From assembly GCA_963716175.1 (NCBI GenBank), contig OY970296.1:3488001-3552000 (forward strand): a stretch of DNA of 64,000 nt. The letters run 5' to 3'. Positions 13,413 to 31,356 of this stretch are shown here, in pieces (position 1 is the first letter of the stretch; the number at the start of each line of letters is the position of its first letter). The DNA comes from an uncultured Armatimonadetes bacterium. GTDB lineage: Bacteria > Armatimonadota > Hebobacteria > Hebobacterales > Hebobacteraceae. The position numbers and the translations under genes are program-made. Under the pieces are notes generated by a model. The model was not told where the DNA came from. It searched no databases and saw only the letters and a program-made list of their open reading frames with translations.

Positions 13413-13458
13413 GGCGGGCATACCCTTCGACTTTGCTCAGGGCAGGCCTATGCCCGCC
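13409..13458. repeat. REP-like palindrome with nested CCCTTCGAC...GCTCAGGGCAGG hairpin
   Basis: GTAGGGCGGGCATA...TATGCCCGCC arms enclosing a second common repeat. Confidence 0.55.
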
Positions 13459-13502
13459 GCCGCGCCATCGGAAGATGCCCTCCTGCGGCCACCGCGCGGT
13501 CC

Positions 13503-14195: not shown

Positions 14196-14237
14196 GGTGG
14201 CACGATTCGCAGGCCAGACGCGAGTCTCCTGCCCTCC

Positions 14238-15353: not shown

Positions 15354-15549
15354 GGAGACAGCTCTCCTAACGAATGCGCAGGCCTTCGCTGATCGCAGGG
15401 CGATACCTCCTGGCTGGTTCTTCTCAAGAGCAGGTGCGGACAGCCGGACGGCCAAGAGGCTCTATGGGTGTTCCGGAGCTTTGGGTGTTCCGGGACTTCC
15501 AGTCCCGAAACCGCGATGCATCGCCGGCGTGTGGGGAGCGAGGTGAGGC

Positions 15550-16245
15550 ATGGTGACAGTGCTGCTGGTCGAAGACGACGCTCAGGTCCGGGAGTTGGTG
15601 GCGCGATATCTGCAGCGAGAGGGGCTGACGACGGTGGCCGTCCCCACCGGCGGCGCCGGGCTGGAGGCGATGGCCTCCCGCCAGCCCGACCTGGTGATCC
15701 TGGATGTGAACCTGCCGGATCTTGACGGCTGGTCAATCCTGCGCCGGATTCGAGATGAGTGGGGCGATGCTCCGGCGGTGATCATGCTGACCGCGCGCAG
15801 CGATGAGCCGGACCGCCTGCTCGGCCTCGATCTGGGGGCAGATGATTACATCGTCAAGCCCTTCAGCCCGAGGGAGGTGGCGGCCCGGGTGAAGGCAGTG
15901 CTGCGACGGACCAAGCGAGCACCCGAGGCCCCGGAGGAGCTGTCTTTCCCCGGGCTGCGACTGGACCTGGCTGGTCACACCGTCTGGCGAGGCGAGGCCG
16001 TTGTCCCTCTCACCTCCAAGGAGTTCGACCTGCTCGCCCGGCTGGCCCAGCACGAGAACCGGGTGCTGCTGCGGGGTGACCTCTACGACGCGGTGTGGGG
16101 CGAGGAGGGACAGGGAGATGATCACACCCTGGATGTGCACATCAGCCGGCTGCGCCGAAAGCTGGCGGGGCCGGACGGGATCAGCTACCTCACCACGGTG
16201 AAGGGCGTGGGTTTCAAGTTCGAGGTGATGGAACGTGCTAGGTAA
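15550..16245 (+). CDS. OmpR-family response regulator
   Basis: VEDD, LDVNLP, GADDYIVKPF, winged-helix DVHISRLRRKL. Confidence 0.95.
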   Translation: MVTVLLVEDDAQVRELVARYLQREGLTTVAVPTGGAGLEAMASRQPDLVILDVNLPDLDGWSILRRIRDEWGDAPAVIMLTARSDEPDRLLGLDLGADDYIVKPFSPREVAARVKAVLRRTKRAPEAPEELSFPGLRLDLAGHTVWRGEAVVPLTSKEFDLLARLAQHENRVLLRGDLYDAVWGEEGQGDDHTLDVHISRLRRKLAGPDGISYLTTVKGVGFKFEVMERAR

Positions 16246-17668
16246 GCCGACGTTGGTTCGCAGCATCGTGCGCCAGCAGGTGTGGGCCACCGCCCTCACC
16301 TTGGGGGCGATCATGCTGGTGTTGCTGATCATCGCCGATGTCATGAACCTGCAGGTGCGGGGTCTGGCGCTGGTGCGGCAGCTCCGCTCCATCGAGTCCG
16401 TGGACATCAGCAGCGACGCGGAGATCGAGACCCGCTCCCGCGCCGGCCGGCAGCAGGTGGGCTTCATCCTGGTTGATGATTCCGGGCACTGGACCGCGGG
16501 CGAGGGCGAGAGAGGTGAGAAGCCACGAGGGCGGGCCGGCGCTCGCTGGCCAGAGGCAGCCACGGTGTTGACCAAAGGCGAACTGCAGGGGCGCGGCCAG
16601 CTCCCGTGGCTGTCCGAGCCCGTGGTGTGGGCGGCCCGGATGATGTATGACCCCGACGGCCAAAGGGTGATCTTGGTGGTGTGGCATCCCGTCAGCGCCA
16701 TTCGTGCCAGCGCCACCAGAACCAGCTATGGCTTTGTCATCCTGGGCACGGTGCTGATGGCCGCGGTGGGGGTAGGGCTGTCGCTGCGCTCCAGCCGGCG
16801 CATCACCCGCCTGCTGGACAGCATCGCCGACTCCAGCACCCGCATGGCCGCGGGCGATTACCGAGTTCATCTCCCGGCCCAGCCGGTGGCGGAGCTGGAC
16901 CGCGTTTCCGATGCCATCAACCGGCTGGCCCAGGACTTGACCACCACGGCCGCCGACCTGCAGGCCGAACACGAGCGACTGGTTCGGCTGGAGCAGCTGC
17001 AGCGGCAGTTCGTGGCCGACGCCTCCCACGAGCTGCGCGCTCCTCTCACCTCCATGCGGGTGACCCTGGAGGCCTGGCAGGACGGAGTGCTGCATCCGGA
17101 GGAGCAGCCGGCGGCGCTAGCCCAACTGCTGCACGAATGCGAGCACCTCTCGGGTCTGATCTCCAAGTTGCTCGATCTTTCTCGCATCGAGTCCGGGCGC
17201 GAGGCGGTGACGCTCACCGCGGTGGAGGTGCCGGCGGTAGTGGAAGAGGTGGTGGCCACCTTCAGGGATCTGCCTGGGGCGGCCATCGTGCTGGCGTTCG
17301 CGGCCGACCTCCCGCGCGCCCAGGCCGATCGCGAGGCGGTGCGGCGCGTGCTCCAGAACATGGTGGAGAATGCCCGCCGGTTCACCTCGGCGACGGGCTC
17401 GATCCGCATCTGGGGCGAGGTGAGAGAGGGCCGGCTCTGTCTCGGCGTGACCGACACCGGCTGCGGGATCGCACCTGAATACCTCCCCCGCATCTGGGAT
17501 CGGTTCGCTCGTGCGCCCCAGGCGCGGGGCGAGGGCAAGGCGGGCAGCGGCCTGGGGCTGGCGATTGTGAAGGCGCTGGTGGAGGCGATGGGGGGCGAGG
17601 TTGGCCTGGACAGCACCTTGGGCTCCGGGACCACGGTGTGGATGCTGCTAGACCAGGCGACCGGGTAG
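16235..17668 (+). CDS. HAMP-domain sensor histidine kinase
   Basis: Two TM segments, H-box ASHELRAPLT, N box, DTGCGI, GSGLGLAI. Confidence 0.93.
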   Translation: MLGKPTLVRSIVRQQVWATALTLGAIMLVLLIIADVMNLQVRGLALVRQLRSIESVDISSDAEIETRSRAGRQQVGFILVDDSGHWTAGEGERGEKPRGRAGARWPEAATVLTKGELQGRGQLPWLSEPVVWAARMMYDPDGQRVILVVWHPVSAIRASATRTSYGFVILGTVLMAAVGVGLSLRSSRRITRLLDSIADSSTRMAAGDYRVHLPAQPVAELDRVSDAINRLAQDLTTTAADLQAEHERLVRLEQLQRQFVADASHELRAPLTSMRVTLEAWQDGVLHPEEQPAALAQLLHECEHLSGLISKLLDLSRIESGREAVTLTAVEVPAVVEEVVATFRDLPGAAIVLAFAADLPRAQADREAVRRVLQNMVENARRFTSATGSIRIWGEVREGRLCLGVTDTGCGIAPEYLPRIWDRFARAPQARGEGKAGSGLGLAIVKALVEAMGGEVGLDSTLGSGTTVWMLLDQATG

Positions 17669-17758
17669 GGAGGTCCTCCTACCACCGTGATGACGGCGAT
17701 GCAGGCCCACGCGCTGGGCCAGCTTCGACCTGCCCCGTGGCGGCCGACAGCATGTTCG

Positions 17759-17888
17759 TAGAAGCTGTTTCATAACCTTCCCAGGGGAGGTTATGAGACA
17801 GCACTGCACAACGTCAGGCAGTGGCAGGCGCATTTCATGCGAGGGCGTGGTGCGGCCAGCCGGCAGGTAGGTTATGAAATGCGCTCTA
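17759..17888 (+). mobile_element. 130-bp MITE copy 1
   Basis: TAGAAGCTGTTTCATAACCT...AGGTTATGAAATGCGCTCTA; near-identical copies at 31185 and 59072; bounded by TA at both ends. Confidence 0.85.
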
Positions 17889-17951
17889 AGGAGCGTCGCC
17901 GAATGAAGTAACGCGGCGAAGCTCAAGAGGCGGCCCACACAGGCATAGGGC

Positions 17952-17984
17952 GATGTTCGCACATTACTTCGTTGTGCGAACATC
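17952..17984. promoter_or_regulatory. 12-bp perfect inverted repeat upstream of the Lys/Ala-rich gene
   Basis: GATGTTCGCACA-N9-TGTGCGAACATC in an AT-richer intergenic region. Confidence 0.4.
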
Positions 17985-18106
17985 ATTAGTACAGACGCGC
18001 GGTTAGTTGCCGCAAATATGAGACACAGTTGAAGTTCCTGAGAAGTACCTCTGCTACCATCTCCAGCACTCGGGCATCGCCCGAAGACTACCATTGGAGG
18101 TAGGAG

Positions 18107-18472
18107 ATGAAGAGGTTCCTGGTAGGGTGCACTGTTCTGGGTCTCCTCTTGGGCATGGCAAGCGGTGTCTTCGCTGTCCAGAAGAGAGCCAAGGGCAAGG
18201 CGGCAGCAAAGCCGGCCGCGGCTGCGACCAAGGCGGCGACGGCTGAGCCTGCGGCCGCCAAGGCCGCTCCCGCGGAGAAGGCCAAGCCGGCGATGAAGAA
18301 GGCCAAGGGCAAGGCTGTCGCCAAGAAAGCGACCAAGAAGGTCGCAGTGAAGGCGAAGAAGGCCAAGGGCAAGGCTGTCGCCAAGAAAGCGACCAAGAAG
18401 GTCGCAGTGAAGGCGAAGAAGGCCAAGGGCAAGGCCGAGGCCGCGAAGCCGGTCGAGAAGGCGCCCCAGTAG
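18107..18472 (+). CDS. exported Lys/Ala-rich (histone H1-like composition) protein
   Basis: GGAG RBS, signal peptide ending VFA, then only K/A/P/V-rich repeats. Confidence 0.75.
   Translation: MKRFLVGCTVLGLLLGMASGVFAVQKRAKGKAAAKPAAAATKAATAEPAAAKAAPAEKAKPAMKKAKGKAVAKKATKKVAVKAKKAKGKAVAKKATKKVAVKAKKAKGKAEAAKPVEKAPQ
18295..18435 (+). repeat. exact 60-bp in-frame tandem repeat (2.3 copies)
   Basis: 18301-18360 is identical to 18361-18420. Confidence 0.95.
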
Positions 18473-18498
18473 TAGCAGTCTGGATAGCTGGCGAATGG

Positions 18499-18538
18499 GT
18501 GATGACCTCCGCGGAAAGCGGGGGTCATCACGCTTTTG
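18499..18538 (+). terminator. intrinsic terminator
   Basis: GTGATGACCTCCGC-GGAAA-GCGGGGGTCATCAC followed by GCTTTT. Confidence 0.65.
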
Positions 18539-18555
18539 TGGGGAGAAAGGGCTGG

Positions 18556-18676
18556 TGTTTCGATAGGGTTTATTCTGGAACCACGCGCGCCGAAAACCAC
18601 ATCTCGGAGGGGATAACCTGGAATTGCGGGCGTCTGACGAATGCCTGTTCGCCGGTTTGGGAGTGCTAAGCCGGAA
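18556..18676 (+). repeat. transposon left end with three putative transposase-binding sites
   Basis: GGTTTATTCTGGAA 18567-80, GGGATAACCTGGAA 18610-23, GTGCTAAGCCGGAA 18663-76. Confidence 0.75.
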
Positions 18677-18953
18677 AAAGAATGCGGCCGCGCTCCTGAG
18701 AGCGAGGTGTGACATTGGGATCTGCAAACAGGGACCCTCGGCGAGCGCCCTTCCATCGGACCAGGCCGAACGCTGCGGCGCGCGCCTGGTGATCGCCCTG
18801 CAGAAGGATCTCGTCATTGACCGCTCCACTCTCTTTCGCTGCGTCCAATTCCATCAGGCTTTCTCCCTGGAGGAGATTCTTGCCACGGGGAGACAATCTC
18901 AGCGGGGCCTAACCTGGAGCAAGCTACGCCTCATTTTGGCTCTTGACACGTGA
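18624..18953 (+). pseudogene. DUF1016 N-terminal (YhcG-N)-like fragment
   Basis: RLVIALQKDL..RSTLFRCVQFHQAF..EILAT..Q..LTWSKLRLIL pattern; no convincing start and overlaps the end sites. Confidence 0.5.
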
Positions 18954-18979
18954 CGGGGCAAAGGGCCGCGGCAAGTCGT

Positions 18980-19008
18980 TGGACAGCGCGGGATTCATGT
19001 GGTATACT
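18980..19008 (+). promoter_or_regulatory. sigma70-type promoter with extended -10
   Basis: TGGACA-N17-TATACT preceded by TGG. Confidence 0.65.
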
Positions 19009-19013
19009 CCCTT

Positions 19014-19320
19014 GCGCTTGATTCCGGCGGCATAGGCTGATCGGCGCAGATAGACAACCTGGCGGCCCGGGTGCCGTGTAGCGGGGCATATGACAGCTCC
19101 GTGTCGACTCATCCGGGTGATCGGCTCCAGTAGGGCCGGGCGGGAAGCACTGGGAACGTCTCCCTTGTGGAGGGGCGCAGTGCAATCCGCCGGTCCAAAA
19201 CCGAATAGATGCGCAGCGCCTTGGGCACTGGCCTCCGTACCACAAAGGACTAAGGCCTCAGACCCGCGGTCAAAGGATGAAAGCTGCCATGACCCCATTG
19301 GGGTTATGGCAGCTTTTGCG
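19014..19320 (+). ncRNA. candidate structured leader or ncRNA ending in a terminator hairpin
   Basis: Lies between the promoter and the first RBS; several nested stems; 17-bp hairpin AAAGCTGCCATGACCCC-ATT-GGGGTTATGGCAGCTTT. Confidence 0.5.
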
Positions 19321-19338
19321 TTTACAGGAGATCATCCG

Positions 19339-19995
19339 ATGAGCAAAGCTACCAAGAAGCAAGGCACGCACGGCAGCGAGATCGACCAGCTTCAGACCGA
19401 GATCGCCCGCCTCAGCGCCCGCGTCGAAGAAGTGGGTGAGAAGGAGTCCGCGGCCGCGGCCGAGGAGCAACGGCTATCAGGTGCGCTCGGCGCATTGATC
19501 GGCCAGGCCAGGTCGCCCACTGAGATTGGAAAGACCCGGCGGCGGCTCCGGCAGATCGACGAGCAGCGCGCGGATCTGCGCGCTGGGCGGCAGTGGTTGT
19601 TGAGCTCATTGAGCGAAGCGGAGGCCCGCCTCGCCGCGGCGCGGAGGGAGAAGGGACTCCACCTCCTGGAGCGGGATGTGACGGAGCTTCGGAGCCTGGT
19701 GAAGAAACTCGTCGCGCTCGAGGCCGAGTCGGCCAGTACAGGGCAATTGCTGGTGGTTGCCTATGGATCTCTACTCACCCACGCGCGAGAGCTTCGCCAC
19801 GCGACGCCAGGAGGGGGCCTCGTTGACGTGCCGGATCTCGACGACGTGTTGTGGGGAGCCCTTACCAGCGGAGGGCCCGGCGGCAGTGACCACCGTGGAG
19901 CGCTCACGCTGGCGGCCGTCGCCTCCCGAAATGCGCATGCCGAGCTGCGACACTTGTTGGCGATAACCGTCCAAAGTCGGGGGAACGCCGAATGA
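19339..19995 (+). CDS. coiled-coil hypothetical protein
   Basis: AGGAG RBS; heptad-rich helical sequence; ATGA coupling to the next gene. Confidence 0.7.
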   Translation: MSKATKKQGTHGSEIDQLQTEIARLSARVEEVGEKESAAAAEEQRLSGALGALIGQARSPTEIGKTRRRLRQIDEQRADLRAGRQWLLSSLSEAEARLAAARREKGLHLLERDVTELRSLVKKLVALEAESASTGQLLVVAYGSLLTHARELRHATPGGGLVDVPDLDDVLWGALTSGGPGGSDHRGALTLAAVASRNAHAELRHLLAITVQSRGNAE

Positions 19996-20693
19996 TCGCC
20001 TCCCGGGAGACAGCCGTGGCCAGCCCAGCGCCCGGCGGGCCCGAGAAATCCGCCGGCGAATCCAGCCCGGGATCCGCCCTCCCCGGCGGCGGATCGAGCC
20101 GGCCCGACTCTCTCAGCCCAGAGGAGGCTGCGCTCTTCGAGCTCATCGTTGGTCGCCTGGACAATCCGGAACTTGTTGACTCTCCCTTCGGTAGGGCCGT
20201 GCTAGTTTACCTCTGCCTGCGGCGCAGGGCGCCGGGCCTACAATTACTCCCTATTCTGCGGTGGCCGGCCGATTTGCTCTCCTCCTGCACTACCTCTCGC
20301 TTCCTTCATTCGGCCGTGCCTGACCTGGTTCCCGCTCCCCCGCCAGAGGAAGAGGATCTCGACCGTCCAAACGTCTGGCCCCCGCTGGCGCCCTCAGCCG
20401 GTACGATCGTCATCGGCCTGGAAACTTTTCACTGGCAAACCCCTTCCCTGGGCGAACTTGAAGGTTGCGAGAACTCTGTCGGCAGCCTTCATGATGGCCG
20501 CGTGCGGAGCTCGGCAAAGGCGTGTATCCGCCTCGCTGTTCTGTTCCTTCGCGCAAAGCATCCTGAGGTGACCGCCGAAATTGTCGGCGGCTTTGCCGCC
20601 AATGCCTGGGGGCCGCTCACCGATATGTTTAAGCGAGCTCTTCCTCATCTTTGGGCCGAGGGTACAGACCAGAAGGAGGGGATCCATGCTTAA
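19992..20693 (+). CDS. protein with two tail-assembly-chaperone-like repeats
   Basis: Two segments align by eye to the products of 20686 and 21133. Confidence 0.55.
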   Translation: MIASRETAVASPAPGGPEKSAGESSPGSALPGGGSSRPDSLSPEEAALFELIVGRLDNPELVDSPFGRAVLVYLCLRRRAPGLQLLPILRWPADLLSSCTTSRFLHSAVPDLVPAPPPEEEDLDRPNVWPPLAPSAGTIVIGLETFHWQTPSLGELEGCENSVGSLHDGRVRSSAKACIRLAVLFLRAKHPEVTAEIVGGFAANAWGPLTDMFKRALPHLWAEGTDQKEGIHA

Positions 20694-21090
20694 GGACGAC
20701 TTCACCGTCATGGGAACAGACTACCTCTGGAGCCCGCCGACAGCAGCGGATCTGGCTGAGTGGGAGCGTGAGATCGGTCAGCGGCCGCTGACCGACCAGA
20801 CCGCCCTGCGTTCGGTTCACGGGAGGGGCTATTTGCTGTGGCTGCTTTTCCGGCGGGATCAACCTGATCTCACCCTCGATCGGGTTCTGGCCTGGGGCCC
20901 GAACGTCATCGCCTCCCCGAACATCTCTCGCCTCCTCAACAAAGCGTGCCCGCAGCTCGGGATCGAGGAGGTCAAGGCGGACCCCCGACACATGTATGGC
21001 AGACAGACGACCAACCGCCAGAAAGGTCTCGCAACGAACCGGTCCTCCGGAGTCGAGCGTCTCCTGGACATCGAGGGGCCAGCCCGATGA
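20686..21090 (+). CDS. tail-assembly-chaperone-like paralogue
   Basis: AAGGAGG RBS; YLWSPPTAADLAEWE..SVHGRGYLLW..QPDLTL. Confidence 0.6.
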   Translation: MLKDDFTVMGTDYLWSPPTAADLAEWEREIGQRPLTDQTALRSVHGRGYLLWLLFRRDQPDLTLDRVLAWGPNVIASPNISRLLNKACPQLGIEEVKADPRHMYGRQTTNRQKGLATNRSSGVERLLDIEGPAR

Positions 21091-21132
21091 ATCGTGCGAT
21101 CGACGGTCTCTGCTGAGAAAGGATCACAAGTC

Positions 21133-21519
21133 ATGCCTTCAACCGGCACCATCGAAGTCGATGGCCACACCTATACCTGGCTCTCGCCCACGCTTGGGGA
21201 CTTGGAGCGGTTCGAGGCTACCATCGGGCCAATCTCCGACTCCGCTGCCATAAACAGCGTCAAGGGCCGCATTTGGCTCTGCTGGGCCTGCCTCAGAGAG
21301 AGCCAGCCGGACCTAACCTTGAAGCAGATCGGCGAGTGGCCAGCGGATGCCTGGAACGCCATCTGGGCCACGATCCAGCAGGCAATTCCGCTGTGGGGCC
21401 CCGCCAGCGGCGAGGACGAGAAGAAGAAGGAGAAGACCTCGGCCTCGCCCGACACCTCTGCCTCGCCTGCGCCCGACTCTGGGGGTGGCCCCCTTCCGTC
21501 ACCCGTCGGGAGCGGGTAG
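21133..21519 (+). CDS. tail assembly chaperone-like protein (gpG-like), with probable -1 extension to 21635
   Basis: Directly upstream of the tape measure gene; IEVDGHTY..PTLGDLERFE; the -1 frame encodes ARLWGWPPS..RVGDLLDLL. Confidence 0.65.
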   Translation: MPSTGTIEVDGHTYTWLSPTLGDLERFEATIGPISDSAAINSVKGRIWLCWACLRESQPDLTLKQIGEWPADAWNAIWATIQQAIPLWGPASGEDEKKKEKTSASPDTSASPAPDSGGGPLPSPVGSG

Positions 21520-21555
21520 GCGATCTTCTCGACCTGCTCAGGGACTTAGAGAGCG

Positions 21556-23070
21556 ATGCCACAGACAGAGAAGCTCGAAATCCTAGTCCAGGCCCGCGAC
21601 CAGGCCAGCGCCGTCCTCAAGGGCGTCGCCGGTAACCTGCGCGGCGAGCTCAAAGCCGTCGAAGGCGCGAGTGCCGGTCTCGCCAGCACCAGCAGCCGCA
21701 TGGCCGGCACCACGGTCGCGGGATTCGGGCAGATGCGGGGCTCCGCCAAGGGGTTCACCTCCCAGCTCAATGCCACCAGGCTGGTGATGGCTGGTGTCGC
21801 CGTAGCCGCCGTCGGGATGGCCACCAAGTTCATTGAGAAGGCCGCCGAGGCCGAAGCCGTCGCCACCAAGCTCCGCGTCGCCATCGCCGCCAGCGGCCAG
21901 GGCATCAACCAGAAGGCGCTCGAGGAACTGGCCACCCATCTTGGGGAGGTGACTACCTTTAGCAAGGAAGCCGTCGAGGGTATGGAAGCGTTCCTTGTTG
22001 GCGCCCATCTGAATCAGGAACAGATCGAACGCCTCAGTCCGGCCATTATTGACATGGCTACCTACCTCGGCACCGACCTCACCTCTGCGGCCAAGGCCAT
22101 CGGCATGGCCCTCAAGAGAAACTCCACCATGCCCCTCATGCGCCTGAAGTTGGCGGTTGATAAGGCGAAGTTCGCGCTCGATCCGCTCGGCGCCATCCTC
22201 GATGCCATCAAAGGCAAGGCCGGCAACCTGGGTGAAGCCGCCGGCAGGGACGCTGGCGGCCAACTGGCCATCTTCACACACCAGGTGGAGCAACTCGAGA
22301 TCGCTCTCGGCACTATGCTCCTGCCGACACTCAAGCTCGTGGTTCCACTCATGAAAGACCTAGCCAAGGCCGCGACCGCGATCGCCCAGGTCCCGGGTGT
22401 CAGCCAGGTGGTGTCAGGCGGCATGCTTCTTGCTGGGGGCCTCGCGGTTGCCGGCCTGGTTGGTGGGCCCCTCGCAAAGGGGGCCAAAGGAGCGGCGGCA
22501 GTGGGCAAGTGGGCCCTTACCAGGGCGGGAGTCCTGGAGGCCGCCGCCCCCGTCGCCGAGGGCGTCGCCGAGGGCGCCGCCGTTGGCTTCGGCGCACGCG
22601 CGCTGGGGCTACTCGGCGGCCCGATCGGAGCGACCGCGGTCGTCGCCGGCACTGCCGCTACCATCGCCGGCCCGCCGCTCGCCCGCTGGAGGGAAGCCAG
22701 GCAGGAAGATGCCATCACTGCCCGCGCCCGGGCCTTCGTCGCCCGCAGGCGCGCTGCCGGCCTGCTAATCCCGGGCGAACCCTTCACCGGCCCGCCTCTC
22801 CAGGAGCCCGCCCGCGTGGCCCCTCCCACCGGCCCCGAGCCCACCCCCCAACAGCAATACGAATCCTTCCTCAGGGGCCAGGGCTGGGTGCTGCCCGCCC
22901 CCGCGCCCGCACCGGCGAAGATCACCAACACCGCCCCCAATGTCGCCGTCTCCCAGGCCGCCAACAACGACCTCCTCATCCGCGTCCAGATGCCCGAAGT
23001 CCCCCAGGGCCTGGTGGACGATTACACCAACGAATACCTCGAAGATGTTTCCTATGCCGAGGAGGAGTAA
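21556..23070 (+). CDS. short phage tape-measure-like protein (504 aa)
   Basis: N-terminal LEILVQARDQAS typical of tape measure proteins; Ala/Gly-rich helical body; IIDMATYLGTDLTSAAKAIGMAL and EQLEIALGTMLLP segments. Confidence 0.8.
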   Translation: MPQTEKLEILVQARDQASAVLKGVAGNLRGELKAVEGASAGLASTSSRMAGTTVAGFGQMRGSAKGFTSQLNATRLVMAGVAVAAVGMATKFIEKAAEAEAVATKLRVAIAASGQGINQKALEELATHLGEVTTFSKEAVEGMEAFLVGAHLNQEQIERLSPAIIDMATYLGTDLTSAAKAIGMALKRNSTMPLMRLKLAVDKAKFALDPLGAILDAIKGKAGNLGEAAGRDAGGQLAIFTHQVEQLEIALGTMLLPTLKLVVPLMKDLAKAATAIAQVPGVSQVVSGGMLLAGGLAVAGLVGGPLAKGAKGAAAVGKWALTRAGVLEAAAPVAEGVAEGAAVGFGARALGLLGGPIGATAVVAGTAATIAGPPLARWREARQEDAITARARAFVARRRAAGLLIPGEPFTGPPLQEPARVAPPTGPEPTPQQQYESFLRGQGWVLPAPAPAPAKITNTAPNVAVSQAANNDLLIRVQMPEVPQGLVDDYTNEYLEDVSYAEEE

Positions 23071-23110: not shown

Positions 23111-23440
23111 ATGACAGAGCAGGTTGCAACGGCAGTCCGGGGAGTGGCGGCAATCAGAGCCTCCGTCGCGGTGAGAGTCAGGCCCGACCTTGTGGCGACA
23201 CTCAGTCCGGAGGTGGCCGCGAGGCTGTTCGGCCTTGGCGATGAGGAGAAGCCCCACGAGTATCTGACCGTCAACGAAGCGGCGGAAATGCTCCGCGTCG
23301 TGCCCCAGACCGTCCACCATATGATCCGTGATGGCCGCCTCCGGGCCCAACGCGTGTGCGACAAGCGCGTCCTCATTAAGCGCGAGGAGGTGTTGCGCTG
23401 CTTTGAGCCTATTGAGCCGCAGAGGTACGAGCTCGACTGA
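23111..23440 (+). CDS. excisionase-family (HTH_17) DNA-binding protein
   Basis: YLTVNEAAEMLRVVPQTVHHMIRDGRLRAQRV. Confidence 0.85.
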   Translation: MTEQVATAVRGVAAIRASVAVRVRPDLVATLSPEVAARLFGLGDEEKPHEYLTVNEAAEMLRVVPQTVHHMIRDGRLRAQRVCDKRVLIKREEVLRCFEPIEPQRYELD

Positions 23441-23444
23441 GGGA

Positions 23445-24224
23445 ATGACGGCTTCCATGGCAACGTCCACCGCAACATCGAAGAGCCCCCGGCCCCAGAT
23501 CGGTCTGCTCGAGTCCACCCCGAAGCAGGTGCTCCCGATCGGGGTGCGTGCTATCGGCCGGTCAGGCGTCCTCGAGCTGATGAGGATTGGCGGCGGACTC
23601 TCCTACAAAGAGGTCGGCAAGCGGGCCGGTATGCCACCCGTCAAAGCCATGCGCCTGATCCGCGGCCAGTACCTTAAGGCTCGCCACCGGGATCTCCGGC
23701 GGATCCTCGATGTCCTCTGGGCCGCGCTTCCGGCCATCCAGCAACCGGGTCCGCTGCAGGTAATCGAGGAGGCAGAGCGTCGCTTCGCCCTCCCGCGCAC
23801 CGCGAGGCCCATGTATCTTACCCTCGATGAGGCCGCCGACCTGCTCAAGGTGAACCGGGCGAAGATGCGCCGGCTCGCCAGCGACCGCCCCGAACTTCAC
23901 GCCATCAGGGTCGGGTGGGGCGTCAGGATTCCCCGCCAGGCGATAGAAGAGTATATCCTCGCCCCGCGCCGGGCCGCGGCCTCCTCGAAGTTCATGTCGC
24001 CGGCGGCTGTGGCCGCCCTGTTCCGAGTGCATGAAGATGTGATCGGGTATGCCATCCGCACTGGCCGCATCCGCGCCCAGCAGTCAACGAAACAGAAGTG
24101 GGGCCGCTGGCGCATTCCCATGGCCGAGGTCAGGCGCATCGCCCGCTTCGGAGTCACCAATCTGCCCCGGCTCAAAAGCTGGGGGCCCACACACAGAGAC
24201 CATGATCGCCGCCCTACTGCGTAG
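23445..24224 (+). CDS. multi-HTH protein (XRE-like plus two HTH_17 domains)
   Basis: GLSYKEVGKRAGM; YLTLDEAADLLKV..IRVG..VRIP; FMSPAAVAALFRV..IRTGRIRA..WRIP. Confidence 0.75.
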   Translation: MTASMATSTATSKSPRPQIGLLESTPKQVLPIGVRAIGRSGVLELMRIGGGLSYKEVGKRAGMPPVKAMRLIRGQYLKARHRDLRRILDVLWAALPAIQQPGPLQVIEEAERRFALPRTARPMYLTLDEAADLLKVNRAKMRRLASDRPELHAIRVGWGVRIPRQAIEEYILAPRRAAASSKFMSPAAVAALFRVHEDVIGYAIRTGRIRAQQSTKQKWGRWRIPMAEVRRIARFGVTNLPRLKSWGPTHRDHDRRPTA

Positions 24225-24659: not shown

Positions 24660-25307
24660 ATGCACCCATACCCATCCCCTGCCCCGAACGCCTCTCCTAC
24701 CCCCCATGACACCCCGTCACAGGGGCATTCCCTGCGCGACCTCAAGTTGCAGGCCGGACTCTCCGTGCGCCAGATCGCCGATCGCACCCGGATCCACTAT
24801 CGCCGTGTCGCTCGCGTGCTTTCCGAGAGAGGGCGCCCCCGGCGCCGGGAACTCAGGGTCCTGCGGCAATGCCTGGATAATGAACTCCGCCGCCGGCGCA
24901 GCTCCGATCCCGGCTTCCTGCGCTCTATCCAGGAGGTGGCCGTTCCCTTCCTGCATGCCCGCCTGAGGCCTAGCGGTGACTGCGCTGCGGGTGAGGATCC
25001 CGCTTTGCATCGAGGGAGTTCACTATCTCCCGTCGAAGACGTCGTTGGCGGCGAGGGAATCGCAGCAGGCGGCCCCTGCGCTCGGCGGAATGGGTCCCGT
25101 CAGGCCGCGGGAGCTCCTGCGACACTATTCGGCCGGCGGCGGCTGAGTGGCAAGCGAGCACCTGCGATTCCCTCCCGCCGCTCTCATCCAGGGAATCAGA
25201 TTTCCCCGCTCCTGTGCGAGGCCACCACGGTCTGCCCCACCTCCACCGCGGAGGCGCTCAGGGCCCACGCGCCGGCGCCCGCCCCGGAGAGGAATCCGTC
25301 CGAATGA
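24660..25307 (+). CDS. XRE-family HTH protein with low-complexity tail
   Basis: LRDLKLQAGLSVRQIADRTRIHYRRVARVL; start uncertain. Confidence 0.55.
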   Translation: MHPYPSPAPNASPTPHDTPSQGHSLRDLKLQAGLSVRQIADRTRIHYRRVARVLSERGRPRRRELRVLRQCLDNELRRRRSSDPGFLRSIQEVAVPFLHARLRPSGDCAAGEDPALHRGSSLSPVEDVVGGEGIAAGGPCARRNGSRQAAGAPATLFGRRRLSGKRAPAIPSRRSHPGNQISPLLCEATTVCPTSTAEALRAHAPAPAPERNPSE

Positions 25308-25744
25308 GCGCGAGATCCTCCGCGGCCGCCACAACCACGCTCGCCCTCCCCGCCGCCGTCGCCCGGGGCCTCCTCGATTGGCGCCGGCGCCTGCAGCAGG
25401 TGGAGCTCGCTCGCCGTCTCTTCTCGCCGCAGGCCGACCAATTGCAGCGGGACCTGTGGGGCGAGGTGGCCCATGCCGTGCTCAGTGCTGGCGACGAGGA
25501 GGCGATCGCCCAGCTCCTGCCCGCCGTTGCGCGGCGGCTGCGGATCAGCCCCGCCAGCCTTTCCCGGGTACTGGAGGTGGGCCGGGCCTGGCCCCAGGAG
25601 ATCCCGGAGCGCCCCTGGATCGTTCTCTGCGCCCTCGCCCGCCTGCCCCAGGAAGAGCGAGATCGCCTGGACGCGGCCCTGCCTCTGGACGCGCCCCTGA
25701 GCGCGGTCACTTCGCCGGCACAAAAAGCGGACGGAGACGCTTGA
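25304..25744 (+). CDS. hypothetical protein, DUF1016-N-like
   Basis: ATGA-coupled; LWGE..LPAVARRLRISPASLSRVLEVGRAWP..PWIVLCALARL resembles the 26137 product. Confidence 0.55.
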   Translation: MSARSSAAATTTLALPAAVARGLLDWRRRLQQVELARRLFSPQADQLQRDLWGEVAHAVLSAGDEEAIAQLLPAVARRLRISPASLSRVLEVGRAWPQEIPERPWIVLCALARLPQEERDRLDAALPLDAPLSAVTSPAQKADGDA

Positions 25745-25768
25745 CAGGGCGAGGATATGGTATATAAT
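25741..25768 (+). promoter_or_regulatory. consensus sigma70 promoter of the transposition operon
   Basis: TTGACA-N16-TATAAT. Confidence 0.75.
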
Positions 25769-25799
25769 GCCTGATAATGCCAGATCAGAAGAAGATAGC

Positions 25800-26009
25800 A
25801 TGGCTGAGCGCCTGATCAAGGCTCGTGAGGCGGCCGCCATCCTTGGCGTGAAGCCGCTCACGATCTATAGGTGGGCTGCCCAGGGGAAACTAGCCTCGCT
25901 CCGCGTAGGCCCCGGGGGGAAGATGCTTCGCTTTCGCTATGCTGACATCAGGGCCTTGATCAAGGAGAGCCAGGCCCAGGACAAGCCCGGCGACGAGGGG
26001 GCTGGGTAA
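25800..26009 (+). CDS. excisionase-family (HTH_17) protein
   Basis: LIKAREAAAILGVKPLTIYRWAAQGKLASLRVG..LRF. Confidence 0.85.
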   Translation: MAERLIKAREAAAILGVKPLTIYRWAAQGKLASLRVGPGGKMLRFRYADIRALIKESQAQDKPGDEGAG

Positions 26010-26039
26010 TGGCCGCCCGCACGGAGAGGGCAAAGGTGC

Positions 26040-26136
26040 TGTCAGACGGTCTGACGGGCGCAATAGCGCGCCGAACCTGTGACATTCACCGTGTCAGACG
26101 GTCTGGCACGCGTAATAGCGCCCGAAAGTGTGACAT
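26040..26136. repeat. 52-bp-period tandem repeat related to the transposon end motifs
   Basis: TGTCAGACGGTCTG...AATAGCGC...TGTGACAT twice. Confidence 0.85.
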
Positions 26137-26829
26137 ATGAAGGCCCCCGCCAGGAAGCAGAGCGACAATCCCCAGATCCCGCTCCCCCTGGAGCTGGAGC
26201 GCGCTCTTCCGTCGCTGCGGGAGCGCCTCGCTCAGATTCAGTCCGCCCTCGGGGGCAAGCCGGATTACGCCGCGGTCAACCGCTGGCGCTGGGAGCTCGG
26301 GATCCAGATCTCGGACGCGTTGCGGAGCCATGCCCCGGAGGCCACCATGCGACCCCATGTGCTGGCGCTCGCGCCGCGCCTGGGGTGCAAGGCCTCCCTG
26401 CTTTACGGGTTCGTGAACGTCGCTAGGGCCTTCCCCGATGAGCCTCCGCCCCAGTATTGGGACACCCTCGTGCACCTTGCGGCCATCGAAGATCCGCAGC
26501 GGCGCCAGGAAGCTCTGCGTCGGCTTCCGGATTGGGCGCCAGTCCGCTTGTCCAGGCCCACCCGGGAAGAGGTCGAGTCCGAGAAGATGCTGCGAGAGAT
26601 CAAGCTCAGCGCCCAGCACGAGCTCGACGCGGCCCGCCATTTTGTCCACAAGCTTCCTTCCACACAGCAGCTCTTCGTCGCCCAGGAGATACTGGAAGGC
26701 TTCGACGAAAAGGCCGTCGCCGAACTCACCGACCCACCGCTCCAGATAGCTGAGATCTGCAAGGCCACCGAGAGGCTGAGAACGCTCCTGACCTGTGCCG
26801 CCGCAGGCCCCAATGAACCACCAACCTGA
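26137..26829 (+). CDS. DUF1016 N-terminal-like protein
   Basis: AVNRWRWELGIQI, FVNVARAFP, WDTLVHLAAIEDPQRR. Confidence 0.6.
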   Translation: MKAPARKQSDNPQIPLPLELERALPSLRERLAQIQSALGGKPDYAAVNRWRWELGIQISDALRSHAPEATMRPHVLALAPRLGCKASLLYGFVNVARAFPDEPPPQYWDTLVHLAAIEDPQRRQEALRRLPDWAPVRLSRPTREEVESEKMLREIKLSAQHELDAARHFVHKLPSTQQLFVAQEILEGFDEKAVAELTDPPLQIAEICKATERLRTLLTCAAAGPNEPPT

Positions 26830-28666
26830 TGAGACAATCGCCGCCCTCATAGCCCAGGTCAATGCGCTGCTCGCCGAAGGGGCGGGCCCCGAGATCGTCG
26901 GCCCCCTCCTCCAGCGGCTGAAGCAGTTATCGAAGCACGGTTCTTGCATCCACAACCTGCGGCGCATCGCCACCTTCCGCGCCGTGAAGAGAGATTCTGC
27001 GGTCAGTCAGGCCGCGCAGCGCTGGATCAAGCGCGGCCAGCGCGCCGCCCTCAAGCCGAGCAGGGCGGCGGGCCCGGTCACCAGGCAGCAGATAGGCCTC
27101 TGCCAGCAGTTCCTCGCGATAGATGCCCAGCCCGAGCCGCTCAGGTCCCGCCTCCTGGAGGCGAAGGCCCACGATCTGAACCTATCATTGCCGACCCTCC
27201 TCGGTAAGCTGAGGAAGGCGAAGGCACAGGGCCCGGATGGCCTCGCCCGCCGGCGCCGCCGCGATCGGGGGCGCTGCCGGGAGCCCGAGGAGGTTCAGGG
27301 GTTCTTCCGCGATCGGCGGATCAACAAGGCCACCCGCCACGAGCCGGTGCAGCTCTCCATCGATGCCACCCGGCGCGAGTTCCCCGATCTCCGGATCTCC
27401 GCCGATGCTTTGCGCCGCCTCGACCGGGGCATCGGGAGGCCGCTCACCATGAGCAAGGAAGAGAGGCGCCGGCGCTACCTCCCGAGCGGCCAGTGGGAGG
27501 TTGCGCACCCAAACCACACCTGGGTGCTCGACTGCACCGTCGCCGATCTCTTTGTCTGGGACGGCGATCCCGATGAGAAACCCTACCGGCCTCACCTCAC
27601 CGCCATCATAGATGAGTGCACCCAAAGCTGCATGTGGGCCATCTACACGAAGGAGACGCCCAGCACGGCCGTCCTCCAGGGCGTCCTTCTTCACGCCATT
27701 CTTCCCAAGAGCGATCCCGACTGGCCTCAGTGTGGTTTCCCCAGGTATCTGCACTGCGACAACGGCAAGGTTCAGACCTCGCACTGGCTCAGGCAAGTCT
27801 GTGCTGCCTGCCACACGAAGCTGGATCTCATGGGCGAAATCCGCCATGCCGGGATTCGCTCCCCCTGGCAGGACGGTCATATCGAAAGCTTCTTCGGCAT
27901 CGCCCACCGCCGTTTTGAGGGCCAGCTCGGGGCCTGCTATTGCGGGAATGACCCCAAGCGCCGGCCGGATTGCTTCGCCGACCCCGAGGGGAAAGGGCCT
28001 CGCGTCTGGCAGCAGTATCCGACGCTCGATATCCTCAATGAGGGCTTCCGCATCTGGATCAGCGCCGACTATCACCACGGCATGAAGCATAGCCGGCTGA
28101 AGATGAGCCGCGCCAGGTATTGGGACCTGCACGCGGATGGCTATGTCGCCGTGGTGCCGGAGGCTTACCTCCGGTACGAGCTGATGCAGCGCGACCAGCG
28201 CAATGTTGTCGGCCCCAGGGTTAGCATCTTCAATCGCGCCTACCGGCATGAGGATCTCATTGCCTATGACGGCATGAGACTCGAGGTCCGTTGGGATCCC
28301 GCTGATCTCACCAAAGTGGGCGTGGTCAGCCCCAGCGGGGCCGTCATTGTCGCCGCGCGAGAGCCGGTCGGCTCAGTGGATGATCCCAAGGATCTCTCCG
28401 CCCTCAAGGGCTGGCGCCGGCGCAGCAAGGCCAAGCTGGAGGCCATTGACACCGCCGCGCGGGTGCTGGCGGGAGGCACTGAGGCTGATCGCCGCACCTT
28501 CGAGGAGAGACTGACGAAGCATCGGGAGAGGCAGCCGATCCGCTTCACCGGCCGGCGCCCCCAGGTTCTCAAGCCAAAGCAGGAAGAGCAACCGGACGCC
28601 ACTGAGGCGCTCGACCTGATCCGGGGCGCAGGGCAGCGCGGCGTGGCCATGGCGGAGCGAGTCTAA
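26813..28666 (+). CDS. MuA/TnsB-like DDE transposase
   Basis: PNHTWVLDCT (D), LHCDNG (D), GHIESFF (E); Mu-transposase C-terminal-like EVRWDPADL. Confidence 0.92.
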   Translation: MNHQPDETIAALIAQVNALLAEGAGPEIVGPLLQRLKQLSKHGSCIHNLRRIATFRAVKRDSAVSQAAQRWIKRGQRAALKPSRAAGPVTRQQIGLCQQFLAIDAQPEPLRSRLLEAKAHDLNLSLPTLLGKLRKAKAQGPDGLARRRRRDRGRCREPEEVQGFFRDRRINKATRHEPVQLSIDATRREFPDLRISADALRRLDRGIGRPLTMSKEERRRRYLPSGQWEVAHPNHTWVLDCTVADLFVWDGDPDEKPYRPHLTAIIDECTQSCMWAIYTKETPSTAVLQGVLLHAILPKSDPDWPQCGFPRYLHCDNGKVQTSHWLRQVCAACHTKLDLMGEIRHAGIRSPWQDGHIESFFGIAHRRFEGQLGACYCGNDPKRRPDCFADPEGKGPRVWQQYPTLDILNEGFRIWISADYHHGMKHSRLKMSRARYWDLHADGYVAVVPEAYLRYELMQRDQRNVVGPRVSIFNRAYRHEDLIAYDGMRLEVRWDPADLTKVGVVSPSGAVIVAAREPVGSVDDPKDLSALKGWRRRSKAKLEAIDTAARVLAGGTEADRRTFEERLTKHRERQPIRFTGRRPQVLKPKQEEQPDATEALDLIRGAGQRGVAMAERV

Positions 28667-29397
28667 TGCAGGAATGGCGGCTGGGCAGTCAGATCATCTA
28701 TGCCATCGGTCCCCTCGAGGAGTATCTCGCGGCGCTTGATCTCTCGCCGCGCCTGGAGGGATGCGAGCAGCGCATCATCCTCGTGGTGGGCGATCCCGGC
28801 ACAGGGAAAACCGTTGCCGCTCGCATCTATGCCCGAGACTGTGACCGCCATCCGATCTACATCGCCATGCCCGCGGCCGAGATGCTCCGCCCCCGGGATC
28901 TCCTCGATATCCTCGGCCGCCCGGTCGGGCTCAGCTTCGACCTCCATTACCCCCGCTATGAGGTGGGGCAGCAGCTCGCCCGTGACAGCCTCGATCGCCC
29001 CCGCATCTTCCTTCTCGATGATGCCCATGCCATGGCCAGGGGCGGCTTGCTCGACATGCTCAGGTGGTTGCATGATGCCGGCGGCCACACCTTCGTGCTC
29101 ATCGGGCCGCCATCCCTGGAGAGGGAGTTTGTGGCCCGGCGCGACCTCGCCGGTCGCGTCGCCCTGCGCCACCAGGTCCGCTTACCCAGTGTAGACGAGA
29201 TCGCTCCCCTCTTCGACAGCCTCTCTGCTGAGGCACTGGAGCAGATCCACCAGGAGACAGGCGGCCGCATGCGCCAGGTGATAGCGCTCGAGAAATGGCT
29301 CGGCGAGCTCATCGAGCAGCGCAAGCTCGCCCCCTCGGATCTCGTGCCGAAGCAGGTGCAGATGGTGGCCCGGCACTTCATGGTGAAGGTGGCGTGA
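28666..29397 (+). CDS. MuB/TnsC-like AAA+ ATPase
   Basis: Walker A GDPGTGKT, Walker B FLLDDAH, FVLIG, LAGRV, TGGRMR; TAATG coupling to the transposase. Confidence 0.88.
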   Translation: MQEWRLGSQIIYAIGPLEEYLAALDLSPRLEGCEQRIILVVGDPGTGKTVAARIYARDCDRHPIYIAMPAAEMLRPRDLLDILGRPVGLSFDLHYPRYEVGQQLARDSLDRPRIFLLDDAHAMARGGLLDMLRWLHDAGGHTFVLIGPPSLEREFVARRDLAGRVALRHQVRLPSVDEIAPLFDSLSAEALEQIHQETGGRMRQVIALEKWLGELIEQRKLAPSDLVPKQVQMVARHFMVKVA

Positions 29398-31165: not shown

Positions 31166-31184
31166 GGACCGGCGATCTGCAGAT

Positions 31185-31314: not shown

Positions 31315-31356
31315 CGCAGATGGCATAGATGCAGGGGAGTCTGTAGGGCCAGCGGC

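Follow-up and report, generated by a model that had tools for sequence, protein, structure and literature searches.

[quoted passage not shown] The four domains belong to one rare family with a TAC fold. The −1-frame extension of C is the G/GT hallmark of TAC genes; what is new here is that, among the three genes, solely C keeps one. New as well are the separate TAC lineage of B and the fast-evolving domain fusion in A. On balance, we think that the genes probably belong to a transposase-driven, satellite-like element that supplies its own TMP and TAC and builds chimeric tails.

Four domains of one rare family with a chaperone fold

A first-pass annotation of this DNA had described a repeat unit in four copies in the reading frames of A, B, and C, and both the copies and the proposed motif were recovered. 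Pairwise BLASTP, with E values that apply to a single comparison, linked A2 with C (1e-17), B with C (2e-15, 44% over 63 aa), A1 with C (3e-10), and A1 with B (3e-8), the exception being A2 with B (0.21), and 10 invariant columns in the alignment of all four copies agree with the motif. A1 is devoid of the N-terminal hairpin part of the unit, 'I.V.G..Y.W'. A profile of the four copies retrieved 41 proteins at E≤0.001 among the 1.84 billion representatives searched, nearly all of them 100–163 aa long, and matches to the family occur in 3 of the 401 Armatimonadota genomes searched, G000 included. Among 36 family members, four match the PHROG family phrog_2115, 'tail protein' (best 2.6e-9), and one matches phrog_15555, 'tail assembly chaperone'. 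Two of the 41 profile matches, at 697 and 1359 aa, are long and multi-stretch.

The AF2 model of C (mean pLDDT 83) was compared with 48,161 chains, and the best four matches were all TAC-type structures: YqbN (3klu; Z 7.7, rmsd 3.1, 82 aligned), the HK97 TAC (2ob9; Z 6.1, rmsd 3.7, 80 aligned), 3fgx (Z 4.9), and PLE1 ORF19 (5ir0; Z 4.5), with the next chain at 4.1, and Z values of 6–8 lie in the range that the structure-comparison tool rates as common. The model of A has a pLDDT of about 96 for A2, which matches the same four structures (3klu Z 6.6, 3fgx 5.1, 2ob9 5.1, 5ir0 4.5), and of 74–80 for A1, which consists of helices only, with no hairpin and no specific structural match. Foldseek against the PDB returned nothing at E≤0.001 (top hit 2ob9 at E 0.17), and 12 of the 50 BFVD rows listed are named tail assembly chaperone or protein. 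The possibility that the predicted folds would turn out to be unrelated to TACs was thus not borne out for C and A2; B is counted as a putative TAC by its similarity to the other copies.

Gene order gives the same picture. In L015, a phage-like metagenomic locus, a Phage_tube_2 gene, one family member, and a TMP homologue follow each other, with Phage_tail_S upstream and tail proteins downstream of this block, and in the window all three TAC genes lie directly upstream of D, with no tube gene. With the one TAC gene present in each of L011, L013, L014, and L015, C shares 51–58% identity, at dN/dS values of 0.27–0.42.

D is the tape-measure protein of this TAC family. Over residues 5–504, it is 32% identical to the L015 protein that follows the tube and TAC genes, and this homology to a protein of a tail gene cluster bears out the earlier naming of D as a tape measure. 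With the L011 TMP, it shares 69% identity over residues 5–309, at a dN/dS of 0.21. PHROG TMP families match D weakly (phrog_1533 at 4.5e-4, phrog_1272 at 2.4e-3) and the L011 homologue better (4.3e-7), and there is no Pfam family match to D. The length of 504 aa was confirmed, and the 'shortness' ascribed to the protein is relative: six relatives have 278–652 aa, and the one with 278 aa is probably truncated, as it is encoded on a 1,155-bp contig and its alignment ends near column 280.

Table 1. Features of the element, with positions in the window.
Feature	Position	Strand	Description
109-aa ORF	18624..18953	+	Leftmost element gene; after host terminator 18499-18531
Promoter-like site	18980..19008	+	TGGACA-17-TATACT with TG extension; ahead of cc-A-B-C-D operon
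cc	19339..19995	+	218-aa coiled-coil protein; stop overlaps start of A
A	19992..20693	+	233 aa; two-domain TAC paralogue (copies A1 and A2)
B	20686..21090	+	134 aa counted from in-frame ATG; TAC paralogue, 'B-type' lineage
C	21133..21519	+	128 aa; canonical TAC of the family (G form)
Candidate slippery heptamer G GGC CCC	21396..21402	+	End of C's folded domain; unproven
−1-frame extension of C	21402..21635	+	T-like part; conserved core 21450-21545
D	21556..23070	+	504-aa tape-measure protein
Two HTH_17 genes	23111..24224	+	Excisionase/MerR-like; 23111-23440 and 23328-24224 (start uncertain)
x	24995..25744	+	Paralogue of y; 41% identical to L014_x
Consensus promoter	25741-25768	+	TTGACA-16-TATAAT
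hth3	25767 or 25800 to 26009	+	HTH_17 gene
Two GTCAGACGGTCTGAC palindromes	26040, 26092 (region 25741..26121)	+	Putative operators
y	26137..26829	+	x/y family protein
Mu-type DDE transposase	26795..28666	+	phrog_310 at 6.8e-56
MuB-like AAA ATPase	28666..29397	+	AAA_22 at 2.1e-13; phrog_296 'DNA transposition protein' at 1.5e-13
z1	29670-29999	+	Small gene; homologue after tnpB in L014, 59% identical
z2	30090-30473	+	Small gene; with z1, last genes of the element
z3	30905-31165		Weak DUF6504 match; adjoins host polymerase gene

A conserved −1-frame extension behind C

C, the canonical family member, has in common with the lone TAC genes of its relatives a conserved peptide that is encoded in the −1 frame and extends past the stop codon. 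The −1 frame runs on for 116 nt beyond the stop of C, 80 nt of which lie inside D. Its core motif is kept in six loci and continues past the 0-frame stop, the −1 frame having a mean pairwise identity of 0.46 vs 0.31 for frame 0 and 0.28 for frame +1. The six loci correspond to about four independent sequences, as L012 is almost identical to L013, and L014 and L016 do not differ in the extension part. In the window, the T motif is matched solely by the −1 frame of C (3e-32; next best 0.31), with no match in any frame of A or B, and the T core of C is nearly identical to those of the phage-like L015 and of L011. It is this conservation that suggests that C may make a −1 frameshift product. Heptamers of different sequence are found in L015, L014, and L013 at the same place or up to about 10 codons from it; no slippery heptamer was found at the corresponding place in L011, and no stable RNA structure was found downstream of the candidate heptamer of C (z 0.36).

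A conserved −1 frameshift in the tail-chaperone genes of dsDNA phages was reportedly described by Xu, Hendrix and Duda in 2004. The arrangement of C resembles that of lambda gpG/gpGT in that a small gene with a 2ob9-like fold (Z 6.1) immediately precedes the TMP gene and carries an extension, in an overlapping −1 frame, that is conserved among relatives. In the lambda paradigm, the tube is recruited by the frameshift extension of gpGT. Unlike in lambda, the extension is short (about 45–80 aa), and both here and in L014 it overlaps the start of the TMP gene; the slippery site varies among loci, and two more T-less paralogues precede the canonical gene.

A second chaperone lineage and a fused, fast-evolving paralogue

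B represents a second, separately conserved TAC lineage without the T peptide. It has its own in-frame tail of 40 aa, is 87% identical to P0012, 49% to P0020, and 45% to P0035, and falls into a B-type clade with a support of 96/91, the B-type and C-type groups having been named after the tree had been seen. The contigs that encode P0012 (B-type) and P0059 (C-type) both measure 2,493 bp and have the same sources, from which we guess that they are one contig.

A is a fused, fast-evolving protein in which a hairpin-less helical domain (A1, approximately residues 43–108), probably B-like, is followed by a complete C-like domain (A2, residues 134–222) with the complete TAC fold. In the tree, A1 groups with the B-type clade (96/91) and A2 lies inside the C-type clade. 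Since the two domains are placed in this way, A could be a younger duplicate of a B–C pair that was fused and is now diverging. A1 and A2 as sister domains were not rejected (AU p 0.147); a single clade of all four copies was rejected (AU p 3.7e-31). The branches of A are long (2.08 and 1.54), its GC3 is 0.67 (0.60 in A2) vs 0.76–0.82 for B, C, and D, and no homologue of A was found other than A itself and a variant in run X4. When A is compared with this variant, synonymous changes account for 6 of the 10 differences listed, and the contig of the variant contains 15 differences. The suspicion that the extra copies might be decaying pseudogenes does not hold for B, given the 87% identity to P0012, and is partly addressed for A, where the open frame and the synonymous differences stand against long branches and low GC3.

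The element and its metagenomic relatives

The element lies within ~18.5–30.9 kb of the window and thus comprises at most about 12.4 kb, limits that are set solely by host synteny, which is back by 31005 at the latest, and by the host terminator (Table 1). No terminal inverted repeats were found between 18.4–19.4 kb and 29.4–31.3 kb, nor was a target duplication, so that the boundaries given here are putative, as is the mobility of this copy. The 109-aa ORF, whose homologue lies upstream of a Mu transposase on contig C354 of G045 (38% over 61 aa), is probably a fragment or paralogue of the x/y gene family, a likeness judged by eye only. The promoter-like site ahead of the first operon has 10 of 12 matches, and three sites were found in this region vs 0.7 expected from shuffles. 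The coiled-coil protein cc matched no Pfam or PHROG family; L011 and L016 have coiled-coil genes at its position, to which cc has no BLAST similarity at E 0.01. The transposase, a single copy of the Mu type in the genome, scores 37.1 bits with Mu-transpos_C (cut-off 21.7) and 28.2 bits with rve, below the cut-off of 32.6.

Among Pfam and PHROG families, no tube, tail-tip, capsid, portal, or terminase gene was detected in the element, which is thus without a complete head and tail morphogenesis gene set. This agrees with the first reading that no tube gene is present, and the element is not an ordinary phage. Across the 4.56-Mb genome, Phage_tube_2 matches just once, about 2 Mb from the element, no match to Mu gpT or Phage_Mu_F was found in the genome, and the genome search with Portal_Mu carries no weight, as its control matched nowhere. 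No Mu-like prophage was found in this genome.

Similar layouts occur in metagenomes. L014 has the gene order of the element (TAC-TMP-HTH-x-tnpA-tnpB-z1), and HTH_17 homologues come after the TMP gene in L011 and L014. L011 and L016 carry Mu gpT capsid and coiled-coil genes, one TAC gene, and a TMP gene, with no tube, portal, or terminase gene in view. L011, L014, and L016 each have a single TAC gene and a Mu gpT capsid gene, and the latter is missing from the copy in the window, which would also fit decay. TMP identities of 35–69% point to a layout that is old and conserved.

Discussion

The presence of TAC and TMP genes without tube, capsid, portal, or terminase genes suggests a phage parasite with part of its own tail-building kit, and we propose a satellite-like element that is driven by transposition and parasitizes Mu-like siphoviruses of the L015 kind, a type of phage known from metagenomes alone. 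During helper growth, C would give two products, a short G form and a longer G-T form that results from −1 ribosomal frameshifting; the former would coat the element's own TMP, the T part would recruit the tube protein of the helper, and the outcome would be chimeric tails that hold the TMP of the element, as demonstrated in 2026 for the Vibrio PLE satellites (PMC12987554, Nature 2026). B and A would be T-less chaperone variants that may bind a TMP and could not recruit a tube. We favor a role of A and B as accessory or selectivity factors on the TMP, be it that of the element or that of the helper, over pure decay, and B may be a functional partner of C. The element is a candidate satellite, its helper phage, virion, induction, and transposition being putative, and the organism is uncultured. 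Our literature search found no transposase-driven satellite.

With Mu-like transposable siphoviruses, which are phages of the D3112/B3 type, the element shares the transposase/ATPase pair and HTH regulators, and with L015 the homologous TAC and TMP, L015 having Mu-type Phage_tail_S and tube genes in addition. Unlike these phages, the element has at most the size given above and no head, tube, or tail-tip genes. The tail genes of Mu are at the far end of the genome, whereas the element has them upstream of its transposition genes, with both sets on one strand.

One of the closest parallels, drawn by fold and gene content, is the tmp-tac-bhuB cluster of the PLEs of Vibrio cholerae, whose helper is ICP1. 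PLE satellites have genes for a TMP, a TAC, and a baseplate hub, and the tails that they build are chimeric (PMC12987554). Both are small elements, mobile in the PLEs and putatively so here, with their own TMP and TAC and with no tube, sheath, or fibre genes, and the PLE TAC, named as such for 5IR0 in the legend of Extended Data Fig. 7 (PMC12987554), ranks within the top four structure matches for both C and A2. Chimeric tails of satellite TMP and helper parts have been shown for PLE and are proposed here from the gene content. PLEs differ in that they parasitize a myovirus and, in the portions of the source that describe them, encode a baseplate hub and one tac gene (PMC12987554), whereas the element combines Mu-type transposase and MuB-like ATPase genes with three TAC genes, one of which has a conserved −1-frame extension. 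Tape-measure genes are also found in EPIP satellites of Mycolicibacterium, which according to parts of the source carry a major capsid gene as well (PMC12822802), as do L011, L014, and L016, and putative tmp genes are listed for cf-PICIs in the legend of Extended Data Fig. 10 (PMC12987554). EPIPs are described in those parts with a serine integrase, a small terminase subunit, and head–tail adaptors (PMC12822802), whereas the element has Mu-type transposition genes for its mobility and no packaging gene.

A rather unlikely alternative is that the element is a decaying remnant of a Mu-like prophage in which the structural genes have mostly been deleted and the extra TACs, above all A, are drifting toward functionless pseudogenes. 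Such decay would account for the absence of capsid, portal, terminase, and tube genes, for the failure to find terminal repeats, for the low GC3, long branches, and truncated first domain of A, and for the rarity of the family among Armatimonadota genomes. However, L011, L014, and L016 have the same reduced layout at considerable TMP divergence, C and D are under purifying selection, and B has a close homologue from elsewhere. Furthermore, all frames are open, with stop/start overlaps at cc/A and A/B, neither the transposase gene nor the ATPase gene is disrupted, there are two strong promoter-like sites, and most of the listed differences in A are synonymous.

It was also suggested that the diversified chaperones act as dominant-negative decoys. 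In this case, A and B, as TAC domains that have no tube-recruiting extension, would bind the helper TMP and keep it from tails, so that solely the TMP of the element, served by C, would be built in, a role like that of Rta of PLE11 and here derived from a chaperone. A missing T part does not imply inhibition, however, since in ordinary phages the T-less G form is the main TMP chaperone, and L011, L014, and L016 manage with one TAC gene. The restriction of the T motif to C fits decoys, as does B as a distinct conserved lineage that could match a different TMP, and PLE11 blocks the helper TMP and uses its own, with PLE TMP selectivity described as unknown in the relevant part of the source (PMC12987554). 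We regard the decoy role as unlikely, and we are equally doubtful of a more novel, extended version. If true, the element would represent a novel satellite class in which Mu-type transposition, and not an integrase, serves replication and movement, and which steals helper tails by means of its own tape measure and a frameshifting chaperone; in this lineage, duplicated chaperones that have no extension (B and the fused A) would in addition have become decoys or sorting factors that exclude the helper TMP from tails, and it would be a chaperone derivative that makes the assembly of chimeric tails selective.

The other original suggestion, that the diversified chaperones fit the TMP of the element to the tubes of different helpers, could draw on the two TAC lineages across three genes of one operon and on the missing tube gene, but it has been weakened to the point of being very improbable, as the tube-binding part, by analogy with lambda gpGT, is the frameshift extension that exists solely behind C, and its near-identical core in L015 and L011 points to one tube type.

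The four domain copies and their tape measure gene

Three adjacent genes, A, B and C, hold four copies of a tail assembly chaperone (TAC) domain, two of them in A (A1 and A2), and they stand between a coiled-coil gene, cc, and the tape-measure protein (TMP) gene D in a tight plus-strand row, in which the stop of cc overlaps the start of A, and the stop of A overlaps the start of B by 8 nt. The genome is a single contig of 4.56 Mb. The first-pass annotation had described the four units by a repeated motif, and this observation as a whole is confirmed: the motif is matched by 10 invariant columns in the four-copy alignment, and pairwise BLASTP relates the copies to each other (E 1e-17 for A2/C, 2e-15 for B/C, 3e-10 for A1/C and 3e-8 for A1/B), the pair A2/B being weak, with an E-value of only 0.21. 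Copy A1 is missing the N-terminal hairpin. No protein family was found for cc, and its Atlas matches were limited to phage-rich clusters without names and a weak Psu lead.

Gene row and downstream genes of the element
Feature	Position	Strand	Remark
cc	19339-19995	+	coiled-coil gene
A	19992-20693	+	TAC copies A1 and A2
B	20686-21090	+	one TAC copy
C	21133-21519	+	one TAC copy
D	21556-23070	+	TMP
HTH_17 genes; x and y	downstream of D		x and y: unknown paralogues
Mu-type transposase	downstream of D		phrog_310, 6.8e-56
MuB-like ATPase, then small genes z1 and z2	downstream of D		

Both identities, TAC and TMP, have good support. The TAC family of A, B and C is rare: a search of 1.84 billion representatives with the four-copy profile yielded 41 proteins at E<=0.001, with few exceptions single-domain proteins of 100-163 aa, and a word-based search with C found two relatives besides C itself. 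Pfam gave no significant family for the copies; Phage_TAC_11 was considered and rejected, as it matched 1 of 36 members at an insignificant E of 0.041. In PHROGs, the 36 aligned members matched phrog_7947 of unknown function (7/36), the "tail protein" families phrog_2115 (4/36, best 2.6e-9) and phrog_17335 (1/36), and the "tail assembly chaperone" family phrog_15555 (1/36), and neither the TMP nor the TAC profile had a meaningful match among PDB sequences. The AlphaFold2 model of C (pLDDT 83) has two strands and five helices followed by a disordered tail. Foldseek against the PDB gave no match at E<=0.001, the top-ranked structure being 2ob9, the tail assembly chaperone of HK97 (E 0.17, probability 0.87). 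The TAC-like character claimed for the domain was borne out by an exhaustive VIA-align search with the model of C, where TAC structures take the top four places (3klu YqbN with Z 7.7, 2ob9 with 6.1, 3fgx with 4.9 and 5ir0 with 4.5) and are followed by unrelated chains at Z 4.1 or less. 5IR0 is a protein of PLE1, one of the Vibrio cholerae satellites termed PLE, and is identified as the PLE tail assembly chaperone (PMC12987554). Among the 50 BFVD matches listed for C, 12 are named tail assembly chaperone or tail assembly protein, including N15 GT, and three are named tail tube protein, the remainder being unnamed. The identity is settled by the phage-like metagenomic locus L015, because its single family member sits between a Phage_tube_2 gene and a homologue of D, with a Mu-type Phage_tail_S gene upstream of this tube/TAC/TMP group and tail proteins downstream.

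The assignment of D as a tape measure likewise stands, as D is 32% identical to the L015 protein over residues 5-504 and, over its first 300 residues, 69% identical to the protein of L011, a satellite-like metagenomic locus. Its middle is hydrophobic and rich in Gly and Ala, its C-terminus is conserved, and PHROG TMP matches are weak for D and better for the L011 homologue. The description of this tape measure as short had to be given up: since relatives span 278-652 aa, the shortest being probably truncated, 504 aa is normal for the lineage. At the usual tail length of about 0.15 nm per residue, D would specify a tail of about 75 nm.

A putative frameshift extension behind C

Three-frame translation of the TAC gene 3' ends from the window and the metagenomic loci L011, L013, L014 and L015 revealed a conserved peptide in the -1 frame (core FFRxAxWPPSRTRRERxxDL..LL), which runs on past the 0-frame stop, where frame 0 is low-complexity Ser/Pro sequence. 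Averaged over sequence pairs, identity across 32 codons reaches 0.46 in the -1 frame versus 0.31 in frame 0 and 0.28 in frame +1. An HMM of the peptide also found it in L012 and L016, and about four of the sequences are independent, since L012 and L013 hardly differ and this part is the same in L016 and L014. Candidate slippery heptamers occur in four of the five loci, where the folded domain ends or a short way beyond, and their sequences differ (G GGC CCC in the window, C CCT TTT in L015, C CCC CCG in L014 and L013); none was found at the TAC gene of L011. No RNA structure stands out downstream of the candidate site in the window (z-score 0.36). The peptides had no match in PHROGs.

The frameshifting gene G/GT of phage lambda is the classical paradigm of a tail chaperone gene, T being the C-terminal part added by a -1 frameshift. 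Over the whole window, the T-peptide HMM matches the -1 frame of C only (3e-32; next best 0.31), and no T part was found for A and B; for the tail of B, hhalign gave a probability of 1%. By analogy, C thus looks like a classical G/GT gene, accompanied by A and B without T part. The predicted frameshift product of C would be about 165 aa long. A and B are possibly accessory chaperones or decoys. It had also been proposed that the diversified chaperones adapt the tape measure to several tubes, which is unlikely, because only C carries the putative T extension.

Relations and maintenance of the copies

In a maximum-likelihood tree of 42 domains, B and the database proteins P0012, P0020 and P0035 (87%, 49% and 45% identical to B) form a B-type clade with A1 (96/91), and a large C-type clade holds C, together with P0002, and A2, with both A1 and A2 on long branches. 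With both tested groups named after the tree had been seen, a single clade of all four window copies was rejected (AU p 3.7e-31) and a sister grouping of A1 and A2 was not (AU p 0.147). The contigs of P0012 and of the C-type protein P0059 are both 2,493 bp long and come from the same sources, and they are probably one contig. P0020 lies on a contig of 11,284 bp, and the family member P0006 on one of 21,954 bp. The simplest history would be an ancestral B-C pair, of which an upstream duplicate was fused into A and then diverged. An alternative would be a duplication internal to A.

In the AlphaFold2 model of A, residues 134-222, corresponding to A2, form a complete TAC fold with high confidence and have the same fold matches as C (3klu, 3fgx, 2ob9 and 5ir0), and residues 43-108 form a helices-only domain of moderate confidence; both the N-terminus and the linker lack order. 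The dN/dS ratio came to 0.27-0.42 for C against the single TAC genes of its relatives and to 0.21 for D against L011, which are rough values with synonymous sites near saturation, and the evidence for maintenance of B is P0012, which has the same length at 87% identity. It is possible that A is decaying. Its GC3 is 0.67 versus 0.76-0.82 in B, C and D. Run X4, a sediment metagenome from another study, contains contigs 92-98% identical over A, B/C, the HTH_17 gene hth2 and x; A is represented there by one contig of depth about 4, with 15 differences in the contig, 6 of the 10 listed for A being synonymous, which is a small sample. Among the sequencing runs listed as containing the locus, none is of RNA. 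Upstream of 20066, the sequence of this contig is unrelated to the window; low-side joints of X4 (side 21) were ignored as unreliable.

Comparison with satellites

The satellite-like relatives share a reduced architecture. L014 has the end of gpT, one TAC, the TMP, a small tail-like ORF, HTH genes, x, the transposase and ATPase genes tnpA and tnpB, and z1; L011 has a Mu gpT capsid gene, two coiled-coil genes, one TAC, the TMP and HTH genes; and L016 has two coiled-coil genes, gpT, TAC and TMP, with a reverse-strand membrane protein upstream. L016 has no portal or protease gene, and no tube gene is seen in any of the three loci. That no tube gene accompanies the window's chaperones proved correct, as the only one in the genome lies about 2 Mb away in an unrelated tail-like cluster. 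The window holds no gpT or gpT remnant, Mu gpT and Phage_Mu_F have no match in the whole genome, and the Mu-type transposase is the single one in the genome. Searches of genome_contigs with TMP and B-type alignments gave no further loci; in viral_contigs, the TMP search had four matches, all weak and N-terminal, and TAC alignments matched nothing; D had no tblastn match in 50,697 phage records.

The PLE satellites encode a TMP, a TAC and a baseplate hub, which form chimeric tails with helper parts, and Rta of PLE11 blocks the helper TMP; the same source states as unknown how the satellite TMP is selectively incorporated over that of the helper, and gives the first experimental demonstration of satellites with their own tape measure and chaperone, only in 2026 (PMC12987554, Nature 2026). 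EPIP satellites carry a TMP as well (PMC12822802). From gene content, the conserved reduced architecture and the PLE precedent, we infer that the present element may be a satellite. It would extend the PLE theme to a distant, uncultured phylum and to a transposase-driven element type: literature searches, judged by titles and abstract openings, found no transposase-driven satellites among the matches listed, and no tandem TAC paralogues. The copies amount to a natural dissection of the chaperone: one has the putative frameshift extension, another is conserved and lacks it, and the third is a tandem fusion. They offer handles on which TAC part binds the tape measure and which the tube, and on whether T-less TACs help or poison tail assembly.

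A small, conserved ORF of the tail region, 45% identical between L014 (2309-2653) and L015 (6180-6596), is missing from the window; it follows the TMP in the satellite-like L014 and stands between larger tail genes in the phage-like L015.

Borders of the element and neighbouring features

The element lies within about 18.5-30.9 kb, because a host terminator (18499-18531) and synteny with the same-family genome G045, whose flanking contigs align up to 18374 and from 31005, bound it on both sides. No terminal inverted repeats were found at its borders, and no tRNA genes near it. GTCAGAC motifs were rejected as transposon ends: the 11 matches in the window versus 6.1 expected are not clearly above chance (4 of 100 shuffles reached 11), and the two strong ones, both palindromic, lie between hth3, another HTH_17 gene, and y, and we read them as operators. 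A direct repeat of about 130-135 nt that brackets the region (17759-17893 and 31185-31319), MITE-like and with a 19-bp hairpin, was rejected as att sites and does not mark the element ends, because 40 near-full copies occur across the genome.

For an empty-site comparison, G045 alone had orthologous flanks, and both its contigs end at the borders. These two contigs (C490 and C376; loci L037 and L038) stop where the element begins or ends. A Mu-type transposase of G045, sharing about 50% identity with that of the window, is found on a 5-kb contig of its own (C354, locus L039), downstream of an x/y-family gene, and in G045 the site may be taken by another Mu-type element.

Within the element, the transposase operon is preceded by a perfect (12/12) sigma-70 consensus promoter and, behind it, a pair of 15-bp palindromes separated by 52 bp (25741-26121), together probably the regulatory switch of the element. 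Between the promoter-like site of the chaperone operon and the start codon of cc lies a perfect 18-bp inverted repeat (19280-19316), which may act as an operator or as an RNA element.

Next to the left border, a gene for a Lys/Ala-rich 121-aa protein with 60-nt tandem repeats (18107-18472) precedes the strong host terminator, and a contig of run X1 has one 60-nt unit fewer. At the right border, a Y-family polymerase gene is immediately preceded by a small ORF whose DUF6504 match is weak (E 4e-4) and does not reach the family cut-off, and this region (30905-32565) looks like a host mutagenesis cassette. The distant cluster with the genome's tube gene (G000:C1:1515000-1534999, genes at 10825-19682 of that stretch) encodes an Ig-like major tail protein, a tail terminator, Phage_tube_2 and a 916-aa tail protein. 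Its GC3 is very high, head genes are absent from the part seen, and the cluster is possibly tailocin-like or a domesticated tail.
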